Shown: piece by piece, positions 24,686-27,486 of the stretch
Layout of the letters: every line of letters begins with the position of its first letter
How positions within the stretch are numbered: position 1 is the stretch's first letter
From: a virus
DNA length: 64,000 nt
Strand: one strand, 5' to 3'
IMG/VR virus record: IMGVR_UViG_3300021962_000025
Location: 1 to 64,000 of that record
Notes under the pieces: generated by a model
What the model was told of the DNA's origin: nothing
Databases searched by the model: none
The model's input: the letters and a program-made list of their open reading frames with translations, nothing else
Program-made: the position numbers and the translations under genes

Positions 24686-25138
24686 TTATCGACATTGGTA
24701 GTCCGCCGCCCTACTAGCAATTTGTTCGTTAGGTTTCACATTAACCTTAAAACCTAACGAATTAGCCCAACCTTTCGCCATAGGGATAAGTTTATTGGAA
24801 TAATACTTATCATTAGAATTATAATCTAAGTCAATTTGTATTTCCACCTTTATTTTTTCTGATATCCATTGAGCAATTTCTATTGAATATTCAGATTCTT
24901 TTAATAGTCGTGTAAATTTATCATTTATCCTATCTACACTAAAATTTTTATATATGTAATGGACGCCTCTACTTCCATACCTATATGCGATAACAATAGA
25001 ATATTTTGTGATCAAAGCCGAGTTTTGGGAGTCACAACCAACGTGAATTACAGTGTATGGACACAATTCTAAAACCTCTAAAGTGTGTTTTACTATCTCT
25101 ACTTTAGTTCCATCTATTTTTTGAAAGACTTTGACCAT
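24686..25138 (-). CDS. RNase H-like protein, YkuK/DUF458 family
   Basis: 'VIHVGCDSQ','YGSRGVHYI','ESEYSIEIA','IDLDYN','ASRAAD'. Confidence 0.8.
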   Translation of the reverse strand: MVKVFQKIDGTKVEIVKHTLEVLELCPYTVIHVGCDSQNSALITKYSIVIAYRYGSRGVHYIYKNFSVDRINDKFTRLLKESEYSIEIAQWISEKIKVEIQIDLDYNSNDKYYSNKLIPMAKGWANSLGFKVNVKPNEQIASRAADYQCR

Positions 25139-25165
25139 TCATATTTTTATTATTTTAAATTATTG

Positions 25166-25239
25166 TGGACCTAGAGGGACTCGAACCCCCGACCAATTGA
25201 TTATGAGTCAACTGCTCTAACCGACTGAGCTATAAGTCC
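25166..25239 (-). tRNA. tRNA with CAT anticodon, most likely Ile2 (lysidine); elongator Met not excluded
   Basis: Cloverleaf GGACTTA...TAGGTCC-A; loop CT-CAT-AA; G1-C72 and no triple GC anticodon stem, so not initiator. Confidence 0.85.
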
Positions 25240-25344
25240 AATAAAAAAACGGCGGGGGTTTGCGACCCCCATTTCTACTTCTGAATATGCTGATTAAGTC
25301 GACCTCACAGCAGGAATTTCATTTTCGTCTAATTACCGTCTTCG

Positions 25345-25418
25345 CTCTCCATCGAGGACTTGAACCTCGGACCTATTGATTAACAGTCAACCGCTCTAAC
25401 CGACTGAGCTAATGGAGA
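25345..25418 (-). tRNA. tRNA-Asn(GTT)
   Basis: TCTCCAT/ATGGAGA-G; loop CT-GTT-AA. Confidence 0.93.
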
Positions 25419-25427
25419 ATTGATATG

Positions 25428-25504
25428 TTGGGATGACGGGACTTGAACCCATATGTAACCACTTACTCTTTCTACAAGGTATAAGCTTGAGGAGATACAT
25501 CCCA
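25428..25504 (-). ncRNA. non-canonical tRNA-like RNA (no D-arm before anticodon arm; possible UAU anticodon)
   Basis: Acceptor TGGGATG/CATCCCA, T-arm ATGGG-TTCAAGT-CCCGT, hairpin CAAG-CTTATAC-CTTG, then hairpin GTAA-GTGG-TTAC. Confidence 0.65.
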
Positions 25505-25509
25505 ATCTG

Positions 25510-25582
25510 TAGGGAAGACAGGATTCGAACCTGCGACCCCTTGGTCCCAAACCAAGTGCGCTACCACCTGCGCTACTTCCCT
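25510..25582 (-). tRNA. tRNA-Pro(TGG)
   Basis: AGGGAAG/CTTCCCT-A; loop TT-TGG-GA. Confidence 0.92.
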
Positions 25583-25585
25583 ATT

Positions 25586-25661
25586 AGGTTGAGGTAGGAA
25601 TCGAACCTATCACGTCACGTCCCGTGTTTGCGGGATTGCTCTACCACTGAGCTACTCAACC
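25586..25661 (-). ncRNA. tRNA-like RNA with aberrant 6-nt anticodon loop (CAAACA)
   Basis: Canonical acceptor GGTTGAG/CTCAACC and D-arm GCTC-AGTGGTA-GAGC, T-loop TTCGATT; anticodon arm TCCCG-CAAACA-CGGGA lacks U33. Confidence 0.7.
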
Positions 25662-25668
25662 CGTTTGA

Positions 25669-25827
25669 TTATTCCGCCACGGAATCCGTCGATACCGAAT
25701 CAACAACCACTTCTTCAACAGATACGGAATCAACAACCACTTCTTCAGAAGTTTGATCTTGATTGTTACTGTTGTTACAAGCGATTAAAGTAGCGGTAGC
25801 GAATAACAGAAAAAATAATTTTTTCAT
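25669..25827 (-). CDS. 52-aa Bacteroidota-type lipoprotein with EEVVVDSVS repeat
   Basis: MKKLFFLLFATATLIAC lipobox; start reassigned from the ORF that overlaps tRNA-Asp. Confidence 0.75.
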   Translation of the reverse strand: MKKLFFLLFATATLIACNNSNNQDQTSEEVVVDSVSVEEVVVDSVSTDSVAE

Positions 25828-25888
25828 TTCACTATTTTGTTTAATCAATTTATCATGGATTCTTTTGATGGTGACCATTATCCATTTG

Positions 25889-25962
25889 CGGTATGGACGG
25901 GACTCGAACCCGCGACCACTTGAGTGACAGTCAAGTATTCTAACCAGCTGAACTACCACACC
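25889..25962 (-). tRNA. tRNA-Asp(GTC)
   Basis: GGTGTGG/CCATACC-G; loop CT-GTC-AC. Confidence 0.93.
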
Positions 25963-25968
25963 GAATCA

Positions 25969-26099
25969 GCAATCAGGGTGGGATTCGAACCCACATCCAC
26001 TTTCGGTCGGACTGGCTTGTCATTTTGACTTCCCACGTTGTACACCGTGTTGTCCTGTGGAGTACCGATACCTACACATACCAATGTGCGACCTGATTG
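25969..26099 (-). ncRNA. 131-nt tRNA-like RNA with a large structured insert in place of the anticodon loop
   Basis: Acceptor CAATCAGG/CCTGATTG, D-like GCACAT-TGGT-ATGTGT, T-arm GTGGG-TTCGAAT-CCCAC. Confidence 0.65.
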
Positions 26100-26150
26100 T
26101 TTGCCACATTAGCTCCACTTTGTTTTTCCCAAAGAACAAAGAAACTTTTG

Positions 26151-26235
26151 CGGAGAGTGAGAGATTCGAACTCCCGGAACCTTTCAGTTCAATAGTTTTC
26201 AAGACTACCGCAATCGACCACTCTGCCAACTCTCC
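26151..26235 (-). tRNA. tRNA-Ser(TGA)
   Basis: GGAGAGT/ACTCTCC-G, type II variable arm, loop CT-TGA-AA. Confidence 0.93.
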
Positions 26236-26259
26236 AAACGACTTACATGGCATGCTAAG

Positions 26260-26332
26260 TGACCCTGGAACGACTCGAACGTTCGACCGACTGCTTAGAA
26301 GGCAGTTGCTCTATCCACTGAGCTACAGGGCC
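26260..26332 (-). tRNA. tRNA-Arg(TCT)
   Basis: GGCCCTG/CAGGGTC-A; loop CT-TCT-AA. Confidence 0.93.
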
Positions 26333-26412
26333 ATAAAAAAGAGACCCGGGCCCAACAAGCCGCCCGTTGTGAAACGAAATTAGACGGAAGGGCCCTTTTG
26401 AAGGTCTCTCAG

Positions 26413-26498
26413 TACCACCTGCCGGAATCGAACCGGCACGGACATCACTGCCCAAGGGATTTTAAGTCCCTCGTGTCTACCTATTTCACCAAGGTGGC
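26413..26498 (-). tRNA. tRNA-Leu(TAA)
   Basis: GCCACCT/AGGTGGT-A, type II, loop CT-TAA-AA. Confidence 0.93.
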
Positions 26499-26512
26499 AA
26501 TACTTTTCCCAT

Positions 26513-26524
26513 ATGTCAAAGAAC
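26513..26524 (-). promoter_or_regulatory. boxA-like antitermination element GTTCTTTGACAT
   Basis: Immediately downstream of promoter 26529-26559; identical copy at 27024-27035; resembles boxA TGCTCTTTAACA. Confidence 0.55.
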
Positions 26525-26528
26525 ACTT

Positions 26529-26559
26529 CAAATATACAGGCAATATTCTTTAAAATCAA
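26529..26559 (-). promoter_or_regulatory. strong consensus Bacteroidota promoter TTG-N20-TATATTTG for tRNA operon
   Basis: Exact -33 TTG / -7 TAnnTTTG. Confidence 0.8.
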
Positions 26560-26566
26560 TAGGGAT

Positions 26567-26600
26567 AAAAAAAATCCCCCACATTTCTGAGGGGGATTAT
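26567..26600 (-). terminator. terminator inside tRNA region
   Basis: AATCCCCC...GGGGGATT plus T-tract on minus strand. Confidence 0.7.
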
Positions 26601-26622
26601 ACTATCGTTCTGTAACTACTTA

Positions 26623-27000
26623 TTAATCAGTTAATAATTGTTTAGATTTTTTTACGGGTTCACACCCATCTTTATCGATTTTCACCAATCGATTCTCAAA
26701 TTTATCAAACCTACTGTCAATATAACGGTATATGTCGTTCATGTTGTCTTCATGATTCTTATACATTTGATCCGTATATCTCATAGTTTCATTATGTAGG
26801 CCATCTGTTCTACTTATTTCACCATCTATACGTAGGTGAAGTTCTCTTTGGTTTTCATCCAAATTTCTGAATATTCCATTGATAGCTTCCTCGAAACCAT
26901 CGGAACGTTGCTTAACCTTAAACACACCCATAACAGCATACCCCAATCCGAGTAAACCGATCATACTGAGCGCACCTAAAATAAATTCTAAATTTTCCAT
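26623..27000 (-). CDS. membrane-anchored coiled-coil protein
   Basis: N-terminal TM 'FILGALSMIGLLGLGYAVMGVF'. Confidence 0.7.
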   Translation of the reverse strand: MENLEFILGALSMIGLLGLGYAVMGVFKVKQRSDGFEEAINGIFRNLDENQRELHLRIDGEISRTDGLHNETMRYTDQMYKNHEDNMNDIYRYIDSRFDKFENRLVKIDKDGCEPVKKSKQLLTD

Positions 27001-27023
27001 GTTTTTAATTTTTAGTTTTAATT

Positions 27024-27035
27024 ATGTCAAAGAAC
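27024..27035 (-). promoter_or_regulatory. boxA-like element GTTCTTTGACAT (second copy)
   Basis: Identical 12-mer to 26513-26524. Confidence 0.5.
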
Positions 27036-27054
27036 GATAGTAATATCTTTCACG

Positions 27055-27197
27055 CTGTAGTGGAGGGATTCGAACCACTCACGAGGTCTTTAGCCATAGG
27101 ACATTGTACATATTGTGGTCAACCCATTATCCTACGTTTGTCAGATGTTCCTCACCCCCGAGACAGGAGGGTATGTCTGCCGTTTCATCACACTACA
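27055..27197 (-). ncRNA. 143-nt type-II-like tRNA with GTC anticodon and 74-nt variable arm
   Basis: TGTAGTG/CACTACA-G; Leu/Ser-like D-arm ATG-AAACGGCAGA-CAT; CCCTC-CTGTCTC-GGGGG; T-loop TTCGAAT. Confidence 0.72.
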
Positions 27198-27208
27198 AAC
27201 TGTGTTTG

Positions 27209-27282
27209 AGCCTCAGGAGGGATTCGAACCCCCGACAGGCTGATTACAAATCAGCTACTCTGGCCAACTGAGTTACTGAGGC
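27209..27282 (-). tRNA. tRNA-Thr(TGT)
   Basis: GCCTCAG/CTGAGGC-T; loop TT-TGT-AA. Confidence 0.92.
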
Positions 27283-27486
27283 TTACAATATGTTCCATAG
27301 TCTCGGTTTTTTAATTCGAAACCATATCGGTATAGTTTTAATTATTAAGAACCACTTAATTCTTTTCACCATACTATATAAATAATACAAAAAAAATTTA
27401 GATTAATCAACAGAGTTTATCTTGATTTTAAGAACTATTTATAGTTAAGACCTTAAAAAGTCTAATAAAAAGTAAAAAAGAGAGAC

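Follow-up and report, generated by a model that had tools for sequence, protein, structure and literature searches.

An array of tRNA genes and structured RNAs on one strand

The locus described here lies at positions 24686 to 27420 of a 64,000-nucleotide (nt) stretch of DNA (the window), which is the first 64 kb of the 183,758-bp IMG/VR virus record IMGVR_UViG_3300021962_000025. The record comes from an uncultured marine phage, has 36.4% G+C and a CheckV completeness of ~59%, and carries terminase, portal, and major capsid genes near the locus. All features of the locus are on the minus strand. They include eight canonical transfer RNA (tRNA) genes on which ARAGORN and Rfam agreed (Thr-UGU, Leu-UAA, Arg-UCU, Ser-UGA, Asp-GUC, Pro-UGG, Asn-GUU, and Met-CAU), four noncanonical tRNA-shaped RNAs (the shells S1 to S4), boxA-like elements, and a gene of the YkuK/DUF458 family. 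This inventory had been proposed in an initial annotation of the stretch, together with the view that each shell is altered in a different way; the former was borne out by ARAGORN, Rfam, a structural scan, and Pfam, and the latter by structure comparison of S1 to S4. The earlier list was extended by two elements, namely S5, which is the fifth structured RNA, and a hairpin between tRNA-Leu and tRNA-Arg that proved to be conserved. The features, including three open reading frames (ORFs), fall into two proposed units and are given in their order on the minus strand.

Unit 1:
27382..27410, minus: promoter-like site P1 (TTGATT-17-TATTAT), consensus match only
27208..27282, minus: tRNA-Thr(UGU), ARAGORN and Rfam
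27055..27197, minus: S1, 143-nt type-II tRNA-like RNA, family and covariation
27025..27035, minus: boxA-like element 1 (GTTCTTTGACA), ahead of ORF125, exact 11-mer
26623..27000, minus: ORF125, small protein with a hydrophobic N terminus, no family match
26568..26593, minus: terminator-like hairpin and U-run

Unit 2:
26531..26559, minus: promoter-like site P2 (TTGATT-17-TATATT; includes TATATTTG), consensus match only
26514..26524, minus: boxA-like element 2 (GTTCTTTGACA), just downstream of P2, exact 11-mer
26412..26498, minus: tRNA-Leu(UAA), ARAGORN and Rfam
26338..26410, minus: long hairpin and U-run between tRNA-Leu and tRNA-Arg, fold z-score −3.4
26259..26332, minus: tRNA-Arg(UCU), ARAGORN and Rfam
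26150..26235, minus: tRNA-Ser(UGA), ARAGORN and Rfam
26127..26137, minus: degenerate boxA-like motif (GTTCTTTGGGA)
25970..26099, minus: S2, 130-nt tRNA-shaped RNA, orphan, scan and constrained folding
25888..25962, minus: tRNA-Asp(GUC), ARAGORN and Rfam
25669..25827, minus: ORF52, small lipoprotein-like ORF, weak LPAM_1 match
25585..25662, minus: S3, tRNA-like RNA with canonical acceptor and D-arm, 6-nt loop CAAACA, and weak T-stem, ARAGORN, Rfam, and family
25509..25582, minus: tRNA-Pro(UGG), ARAGORN and Rfam
25428..25504, minus: S4, 77-nt rewired tRNA-Ile(UAU)-like RNA, scan, family, and covariation
25344..25418, minus: tRNA-Asn(GUU), ARAGORN and Rfam
25248..25340, minus: S5, conserved non-tRNA structured RNA, followed by a U-run, exact 24-mer in 25 viral contigs
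25165..25239, minus: tRNA-Met(CAU), ARAGORN and Rfam
24686..25138, minus: YkuK/DUF458 (PF04308) RNase H-like protein, 150 amino acids, Pfam

No further tRNAs were found outside the array in the whole 183.8-kb record by ARAGORN or Rfam. A strict scan of both strands of the record, in which a 7-bp acceptor stem had to accompany a 5-bp T-stem with a TTCRANN-type loop, returned the eight tRNAs, S2 (25971-26098), and S4 (25429-25504), plus three weak AT-rich chance hits. By this output the additional tRNA-shaped elements are real and occur nowhere but in the array. S3 was called by ARAGORN as "tRNA-???" with a 6-nt anticodon loop and a 2-base anticodon, and it scored 38.8 bits against Rfam RF00005 (cut-off 29). 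In Rfam searches at E values up to 10, S1, S2, S4, and S5 gave no match to any family, the tRNA model included for the first three, and ARAGORN made no call for S4. The altered part is a variable arm of ~75 nt in S1, a 56-nt domain replacing the anticodon loop in S2, where the D-arm has 6 bp and a 4-nt loop, the 6-nt loop CAAACA in S3, and D-arm parts relocated 3′ of the anticodon arm in S4. The tRNA set as a whole mostly serves A-ending codons, which are favored by this 36%-GC phage.

Structure and conservation of the shells and of S5

S1, S3, S4, and S5 are, as read from their alignments, separate widespread families under purifying selection on structure. The data for S4 proved the most detailed. 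Its relatives were collected with a 22-nt motif from 94 viral contigs (41 unique sequences), and 43 sequences were aligned. The order of parts is acceptor, UA, a 3-bp helix X (CUC/GAG) around an anticodon arm with the loop CUUAUAC, a GUAA-NUGG-UUAC hairpin, T-arm, and A73. The hairpin carries a D-loop-like GG at the place expected for the variable loop; no D-arm is present 5′ of the anticodon arm, and UAUCUCCU is all that separates the acceptor from the anticodon stem, a departure from the standard cloverleaf order. The acceptor has 7 bp, and the T-arm has 5 bp and a UUCAAGU loop. In the alignment, 97.9% of cells were paired, covariation was 0.467 versus 0.135 for shuffled data, and 14 of 22 pairs were compensatory (acceptor, 7/7; anticodon stem, 3/4; T-stem, 4/5). 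Over 97 loci the loop was CUUAUAC in 86, CUUAUAU or CUUAUAA in 6, and CUGAUAA in 5, such that the anticodon was always of the Ile type (UAU in 92 loci and GAU in 5) and U33 and A37 were kept. S4 alone among the shells combines a 7-nt loop with U33 and a purine at position 37. Across the 43 aligned sequences A37 and A73 were invariant, and C4-G69 was the commonest fourth pair (31/43); the known Ile identity elements agree with these features (PMC9976931).

It was concluded that S4 most likely works as a tRNA-Ile that reads AUA, with the 3′ strand of its D-stem and its GG loop placed behind the anticodon arm. Helix X may stack on the anticodon stem as a D-stem does, and the GG loop may reach the T-loop. 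A decoy is the poorer reading of S4, whose anticodons, A37, and A73 suit a rewired tRNA-Ile better. AUA makes up 33% of the Ile codons of the phage (22.3 per 1000), on par with the codons of its other tRNAs, and a second tRNA with an Ile anticodon was not found in the phage record. The commonest companions of S4 were tRNA-Arg(UCU) at 68 loci and tRNA-Leu(UAA) at 55, and the three together would cover AUA, AGA, and UUA. A canonical tRNA-Ile stood beside S4 at 3 loci only, each time with the other Ile anticodon. One cultured phage, the crAss-like Kehishuvirus tikkala of Bacteroides cellulosilyticus, has an unannotated S4 homologue with GAU (OQ198717.1:95575-95654; L448 2501-2580 among our fetched loci, which carry L numbers). 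It sits in a 90-nt gap between tRNA-Trp and tRNA-Met in an array that also has a canonical tRNA-Ile(UAU), and Kehishuvirus was the only GenBank phage match for S4. If the assignment is true, S4 would be a rare natural exception outside mitochondria to the universal cloverleaf, overlooked in ~100 viral contigs.

For S1, relatives were collected with the 15-mer ATGGGTTGACCACAA, common to S1 and a distant match, which gave 46 elements of 141 to 168 nt (37 unique) in viral contigs; 38 sequences were aligned and the structure was predicted with RNAalifold. Of 40 predicted pairs, 28 were compensatory, 97.6% of cells were paired, and covariation was 0.546 compared to 0.166 for shuffled alignments (0/500 as high) and at most 0.142 for slid partners. 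The structure has a 7-bp acceptor, in which U1-A72, G2-C71, and U3-A70 are nearly invariant in the family, followed by G73, and a T-arm with one bulged U, seen likewise in the relative L302. The T-loop and the 3′ strand of the T-stem are identical to those of the neighboring tRNA-Thr. The D-arm of the family is of the tRNA-Leu-like type II, with an optional hairpin in the D-loop, and the rod-like variable arm of ~75 nt ends in the invariant motif AUGGGUUGACCACAA. The anticodon-like loop of the window copy is CUGUCUC (GUC, U37), and that of the family, on a 5-bp stem, is YYGUCUM: the GUC never varies, a pyrimidine occupies position 37 throughout, and the larger subfamily has C at position 33. 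With this predicted loop S1 cannot be an ordinary decoder. Neither S1 nor S5 had a blastn match among 50,697 GenBank phage records.

A long arm and G73 are the identity elements of seryl-tRNA synthetase (SerRS) (PMC7609411), and G73 excludes LeuRS and TyrRS, as C2-G71 does SerRS in tRNA-Leu (PMC9976931). In G73, G2-C71, and the long arm S1 has identity features of the SerRS type, and its charging is a possibility. A special-purpose tRNA serylated by SerRS could act in recoding, in GAY misincorporation, or as an aminoacyl donor outside translation, and the nearly invariant G73 and G2-C71, the long variable arm, and the invariant GUC triplet would suit such a molecule. This reading is nevertheless highly improbable in our estimate: no known decoder resembles S1 in the constant pyrimidine 37 and the C33 of the larger subfamily, U1-A72 would be out of the ordinary in a tRNA-Ser, an arm of 75 nt may be too large for SerRS or the ribosome, and no partner enzyme gene was seen. 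As a separate observation, a further conserved noncoding stretch (CTGAACACAGTG, GCCCGCAGGCCACGGGATCGAAAACTCAGGA) follows S1-like RNAs in L187 (2346-2630), L260, L264, L289, and L315 and is probably also a structured RNA.

Relatives of S3 were collected with a pattern of the D-arm and the variable-region flank (20 contigs, 11 unique sequences). All seven acceptor pairs were compensatory, and the D-arm was invariant. The "anticodon" stem was kept, its loop having 5, 6, 7, 8, 11, or 13 nt and no common triplet. The T-stem retained U·U mismatches, and a U-run followed many members. S3 is, on this comparison, a conserved tRNA body with a hypervariable loop and not a decoder.

S5 consists of a closing stem, an invariant core of ~65 nt, and a 3′ hairpin with a YGCAA loop. 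A 24-nt part of the core was found exactly in 25 viral contigs, nearly always between same-strand tRNAs. Among 13 to 16 unique relatives, 8 of 17 pairs were compensatory, and both the closing stem and the 3′ hairpin covaried. The copy in a lineage whose YkuK is just 57% identical was itself 92% identical to S5. The central hexamer, which is GTCGAC, GTTAAC, or GTTGAC (L002-L011, L193-L217), stays self-complementary, the intermediate being G·U compatible, and this hints at RNA-RNA dimerization or a dimeric binding protein. The Leu-Arg hairpin was conserved in the closest relative of the locus, L001, with one compensatory pair, and is terminator-like.

These data were weighed against the view that the elements are decaying tRNA pseudogenes or junk spacers, leftovers of turnover without function. 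Such a view could draw on the gain and loss of whole modules between relatives whose flanking proteins are 80 to 87% identical, on the orphan status of S2, on the T-arm sequence that S1 has in common with tRNA-Thr, and on the labels "tRNA-Pseudo" and "tRNA-OTHER" given by annotators to similar objects in T4-like phages. It is contradicted by divergent relatives of S1, S3, S4, and S5 in unrelated contigs, with compensatory changes in nearly every variable helix, by the invariant loops and motifs of these four families, and by the retention of S5 where YkuK has diverged. For S1, S3, S4, and S5 the pseudogene reading was ruled out by covariation, and for the locus as a whole we find it hardly credible. 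The initial claim that selection maintains nonstandard tRNA-shaped RNAs can thus be kept for S1, S3, and S4, which have divergent members with compensatory changes, and not for S2, of which no relative was found; likewise, the elements are sporadic at the level of the array, as pseudogenes would be, but S1, S3, and S4 are conserved as families.

S2 has an acceptor of 7 to 8 bp (the eighth pair is optional), a 6-bp D-stem with a 4-nt loop, a perfect T-arm, and a 5-bp anticodon stem topped by a 56-nt Y-shaped domain, as deduced by inspection and constrained folding. With this domain predicted in place of the loop, S2 cannot decode normally. The 6-bp D-stem, 4-nt loop, and 8/5 acceptor/T branch match the geometry of bacterial tRNA-Sec (PMC7609411, PMC5389517). 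An assignment as tRNA-Sec, which calls for UCA in a 7-nt anticodon loop and for a long variable arm, was rejected, as the insert stands in place of that loop. Group I introns are about 200 nt or more, and an intron in S1 or S2 was rejected because the inserts (56 to 75 nt) are too small and no Rfam intron family matched. A second copy of S2 was not found in its own genome. A loop-anchored pattern returned only two GC-rich chance hits from the metagenome collection, and a pattern of the 22-nt T-arm/acceptor part returned 101 viral contigs, all with true tRNA-Cys or other shells of unrelated interiors. S2 was unchanged in contigs of four metagenome studies, which shows only that the phage is widespread.

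The last 22 nt of S2 are common to phage tRNA-Cys genes and ~50 other noncanonical shells of several families. The search with this tail thereby brought to light ~50 noncanonical tRNA-shaped RNAs in at least four other families, all ending in GTGGGTTCGAATCCCAC-CCTGAY. Family A is 115 nt long (L095, L101, L115, L133) and family B ~122 nt (L099, L130, L141), and further examples were seen in L129, L139, L131, and L136. In one of these families, versions of 74 to 82 nt and of 115 nt differ by an inserted hairpin. For the shell families of other contigs Rfam gave nothing beyond weak tRNA scores.

Transcription signals, YkuK, and turnover of modules

Two exact copies of the 11-mer GTTCTTTGACA are present in 184 kb, and both lie inside the array on the coding strand. 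The 11-mer fits the bacterial boxA consensus (GYTCTTTRANA type), the NusB/NusE site of stable-RNA operons. The 11-mer was kept in L001 and L003, the latter having a close variant, GTTCTTTAACA, also ahead of its transfer-messenger RNA (tmRNA), and the motif recurs 3′ of S1-like RNAs in L238, L275, L314, and L345. The position of element 2 fits a transcribed leader after P2, and element 1 is mid-transcript. Since GTTCTTTGACA contains TTGACA, it may also be read as a promoter −35 element. The P2 region was 92% identical over 86 nt in L001, and the P1 leader was 79 to 82% conserved in L013, L015, and L027. With regard to the strong host-type promoters first proposed, consensus-like sites were indeed located at 27410-27382 and 26559-26531; the region as a whole, with 22 promoter-like sites against 17.2 expected in shuffles, was not enriched. 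As a side observation, an S1-like RNA, a boxA-like GTTCTTTGACAT, and an ORF125 homologue form a module in six other divergent contigs (L238, L260, L275, L314, L315, L345), in several of which a Shine-Dalgarno AAGGAG follows boxA. ORF52 had no relative among the fetched loci.

The arrangement of signals, RNAs, and ORFs could also mean that the elements are punctuation, which would direct cuts by RNase P, RNase Z, or RNase III to free the ORF125, ORF52, and YkuK mRNAs or serve as regulated terminators that a boxA-modified polymerase reads through, in neither case working as free RNAs. U-runs end S5, the Leu-Arg hairpin, and many members of the S3 family, S1 is just ahead of boxA and ORF125 in seven contigs, S3 directly follows ORF52, and boxA-like elements are present, all of which would be expected of punctuation. 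Set against this, relatives of S5 mostly have no U-run while the ~65-nt core is still invariant, L001 has boxA and ORF125 without S1, and neither the conserved 75-nt arm of S1 nor the conserved Ile anticodons of S4 would be needed. Punctuation was accordingly judged very unlikely as the explanation.

The ORF at 24686-25138 matched PF04308 with an E value of 5.4e-18 and 65.7 bits (cut-off 25). Its structural model had a pLDDT (predicted local distance difference test) of 76, and the best Foldseek matches were E. coli RNase HI (E 1e-4), with a TM (template modeling) score of only ~0.41; a PDB sequence search gave nothing significant. D36, E81, E83, E87, D103, D105, and D146 were invariant in five homologues. 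The YkuK/DUF458 family is predicted to belong to the RNase H1 clade of RNase H-like proteins, and its members are uncharacterized (PMC3985635).

The genomic context of YkuK was assessed without bias from searches anchored on YkuK itself, and an alignment-based viral search gave the same 11 loci. In 11 of 11 IMG/VR loci a tRNA array contained the gene or ended with it; in one lineage the array has 22 tRNAs and a tmRNA, with YkuK between tRNA-Trp and tRNA-Ser. Among eight phage records in GenBank, YkuK belonged to the array in Leptolyngbya phage Lbo-JY46 and also in Rhodobacter phage RcXuper and Ruegeria phage RpAliso, where its neighbor is a peptidyl-tRNA hydrolase, and in Citrobacter phage Ci1 it adjoined a CCA-adding enzyme. 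The linkage of YkuK to phage tRNA arrays, proposed for this one locus, was thus supported by many lineages, and no published mention of it was found. On the model and these contexts, YkuK is a predicted protein of RNase H1 fold that keeps company with the tRNA arrays of phages, and it probably acts on tRNA or tRNA-like RNA in processing, turnover, or repair. Such a linkage offers a first functional handle on an uncharacterized RNase H-like family. In the record (~59% complete), a CCA-adding enzyme, the peptidyl-tRNA hydrolase Pth, and a T4-type RNA ligase were not found, the ligase search having no positive control. The T4-like phage Ci1 also carries, 3.3 kb upstream of YkuK, a 114-nt element annotated "tRNA-Pseudo-AAC / tRNA-OTHER" (L231 1536-1649), possibly a long shell.

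Related contigs were fetched with the ClpB-like gene of the window and YkuK as anchors. The closest relative, L001 (YkuK 86% identical), is without S1, S2, and S4 and retains boxA and ORF125 despite the lack of S1. Its S3 homologue differs completely in the anticodon arm, and its S5-like RNA is placed elsewhere. In L012 a tRNA-Met takes the place of S1, and in L028-L030 S4 is directly 3′ of tRNA-Arg. No two of the four RNA families were found in one locus among 460+ fetched loci, which are short and make this weak evidence. The nearest tRNA within 300 nt was always on the same strand, as counted for 23 of 40 S1 elements, 65 of 97 S4 elements, and 38 of 39 S5 elements. The S1 to S4 families are independent modules, sporadic at the array level; this was deduced from the absence of S1, S2, and S4 in L001, the tRNA-Met at the S1 site of L012, and the lack of co-occurrence elsewhere. 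The notion of a single operon-level system, an arsenal that coevolves and has its own nuclease, was not upheld as stated, and of the co-occurrence it implied, that of YkuK with tRNA arrays was found and that of the four RNA types together was not.

Several further observations were made on the surroundings and on one related array. A tmRNA gene lies 1.4 kb beyond the array (window 22912-23324, minus strand; Rfam 79.9 bits), and its ARAGORN tag VDSKVAVA* is identical in relatives L001, L013, L015, and L028. In the distant YkuK lineage (L002-L011) the boxA-like GTTCTTTAACA precedes the tmRNA, whose tag has 22 residues and the ending AVAA. On the other side, the array is neighbored by a peptidoglycan-binding amidase (27738-28661, plus strand) and a ClpB/ClpC-like double AAA+ ATPase of 671 amino acids (28809-30824, minus strand). 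The ATPase has relatives in at least 196 viral contigs, the best 80 at 71 to 87% identity, and is a good anchor for the phage group. In the 22-tRNA array of L003 (a phage contig of 140 kb; array at 3350-5670), the tRNAs are mostly separated by elements of 60 to 130 nt with a terminal stem, among them two copies of a AGGATRCATACAGCAA motif and two that share a CACAGTAGG…CCTACA hairpin, and the tRNA-Asn has an aberrant T-loop.

Interpretation and comparison with known systems

The explanation that we favor, and hold to be probable with some reserve, is that this is a two-unit stable-RNA locus of a phage, made up of tRNAs and tRNA-scaffolded modules, in which S4 acts as a tRNA-Ile, S1 to S3 are mimics, and YkuK acts on RNA. 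Each unit would have a host-type promoter and a boxA-like leader element, with terminator-like hairpins between and within the units, and boxA-modified polymerase may read through the internal ones. The shells would be cotranscribed with the tRNAs and then cut out by the host tRNA-maturation enzymes, with RNase P acting at the 5′ end, trimming at the 3′ end, and addition of CCA, to give stable small RNAs. Release by these enzymes is inferred because the shells keep the acceptor/T-arm minihelix, which is recognized by RNase P and the 3′ maturation enzymes. S4 would then read AUA, and S1, S2, and S3 would be tRNA mimics or tRNA-scaffolded small RNAs that bind tRNA-recognizing proteins, meeting their partners through the variable arm of S1, the loop of S3, and the insert of S2.

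Several points tell against this explanation. S2 remains an orphan with no relative, and the claim of selection was not extended to it. The bulge in the T-stem of S1 and the U·U mismatches in that of S3 mean that recognition by RNase P and the CCA enzyme is assumed. No variation was seen in helix X or the GG-hairpin of S4, and the rewired fold gains no covariation support from these two helices; the GG-hairpin and the 3′ strand of helix X had been prescribed by the scan pattern, whereas the 5′ strand, invariant too, had not. The need for S4 would be less if the tRNA-Met(CAU) of the phage were a lysidine-type tRNA-Ile2, as it could be. The promoter and boxA assignments are consensus matches only. 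The sequencing runs found for the locus were DNA metagenomes, with no RNA run among them; reads of four DNA runs yielded contigs only, and depth was dominated by tRNAs of other organisms. For YkuK, the homologues at 55 loci (26 to 86% identity) were mostly 5 to 260 nt from a same-strand tRNA, a figure biased by the many loci fetched for their tRNA-like content, and the huge phages LR756501 and LR756508 have YkuK with no tRNA within 5 kb.

The role first suggested for the shells, that of anti-defense decoys, was considered for S1, S2, and S3, which would absorb tRNA-targeting nucleases or toxins and spare the real tRNAs while YkuK matures or recycles the shells. Conserved shells that keep the acceptor/T-arm body and lose decoding features would suit this role, phage tRNAs are known to counter tRNA-cleaving defenses (PMC10264068, PMC11464382, PMC11555353), and among known defenses are some that act by cutting the 3′ tails of tRNAs or by removing their anticodon arm (PMC12851939, PMC12445682). 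The known phage tRNAs of this kind, among them T5 tRNAs, which act against PARIS, retron/PtuAB, and anticodon nucleases, resemble the shells in being tRNA-shaped, in standing in arrays, and in having an anticodon region that departs from that of the host. They are, however, able to decode and, with their altered anticodon loops, replace host tRNAs that have been cleaved, whereas S1 to S3 are predicted not to decode. Moreover, the invariant variable-arm motif and GUC loop of S1 suggest one specific partner over a generic sponge, and the families are sporadic even among close relatives. Decoys are, in our judgment, an unlikely explanation, though one with some plausibility. A larger proposal, that phages of Bacteroidota and other aquatic hosts have a modular toolkit of at least three undescribed tRNA-mimic families (S1, S3, and orphans like S2), which would gain access through their tRNA body to the host network that processes and binds tRNAs, with S1 serylatable and having one partner and YkuK maturing or policing the set, which would disarm tRNA-targeting immunity or reprogram translation, seems to us rather less likely still.

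Canonical tRNA-Ile (GAU, lysidine-CAU, or rarely UAU) has the loop CU-UAU-AC, A73, 7-bp acceptor, and 5-bp T-arm in common with S4, which differs in the order of its parts and in the extra helix X and GG-hairpin. S1 resembles class II tRNAs in its G73, its long variable arm, and a D-arm of the Leu type and differs from these, from tRNA-Sec, and from allo-tRNAs by its ~75-nt arm, invariant 15-nt motif, and pyrimidine 37; S2, having no anticodon loop, likewise falls outside the tRNA-Ser/Leu/Sec and allo-tRNA definitions. A tmRNA reading of the shells fails the defining tests. YrlA, which is bound by Rsr/Ro60 and also occurs in phages, is likewise a noncoding mimic of the acceptor/T/D region of tRNA (PMC4201824), but the termini of S1 to S4 lie in an acceptor stem and not in a Ro-binding stem. 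A YrlA assignment was rejected, as the RF02553 match reached 33.1 bits against a gathering threshold of 69 and spanned the 3′ half of S2 and the 5′ part of tRNA-Asp, an artifact of tandem genes; a TROVE (PF05731) gene had no match in the ~59% complete record. The phage YkuK is of the same Pfam family as B. subtilis YkuK, and its predicted fold and conserved acidic residues are in line with the RNase H-like prediction; it differs in that phage members are inside tRNA arrays, some beside a peptidyl-tRNA hydrolase or CCA-adding enzyme. A 2020 review of noncanonical tRNAs makes no mention of phages or viruses.

The closest precedent, by analogy of layout, is the tRNA cluster of phage T4, through which tRNA-like stable RNAs in phage tRNA clusters are already a known kind. 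In T4, eight co-oriented tRNAs are followed by rnaC (species 1, 139 nt) and rnaD (species 2, 119 nt), and these two are coprocessed with the tRNAs. Analysis of rnaC (L465 2409-2547) revealed a canonical T-arm (CCGGG/UUCGAAU/CCCGG), a fold z-score of −4.6, and an acceptor-like closing stem of seven positions with two U·U mismatches around large inserted hairpins. A T-arm and acceptor-like stem enclosing a non-tRNA interior is the same general design as that of S1 and S2, and the genes of rnaC and rnaD, like those of the elements here, share the strand of a tRNA cluster within which, or at whose end, they lie. The shells here differ in being interleaved with tRNAs and of at least four types, and the T4 cluster has no YkuK gene. 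No relation to rnaC or rnaD was found: in BLAST searches of GenBank phages, S1 and S5 had no match and S4 matched Kehishuvirus only. The description of the shells as hitherto undescribed was thus right in that no Rfam model and no relation to the T4 RNAs were found, and needed qualification in that T4 had set the precedent. tRNA genes are among the commonest host-like phage genes, their roles are being rethought as counterdefense, and, as this locus shows, much of the content of phage tRNA arrays escapes gene finders. The stable RNAs of the T4 cluster have been known since the 1970s, and rnaC and rnaD are still of unknown function (PMC9697503); S1 and S3, as predicted nondecoders, together with S5, now offer alignable candidates for the 50-year-old question of what tRNA-like stable RNAs do for a phage.

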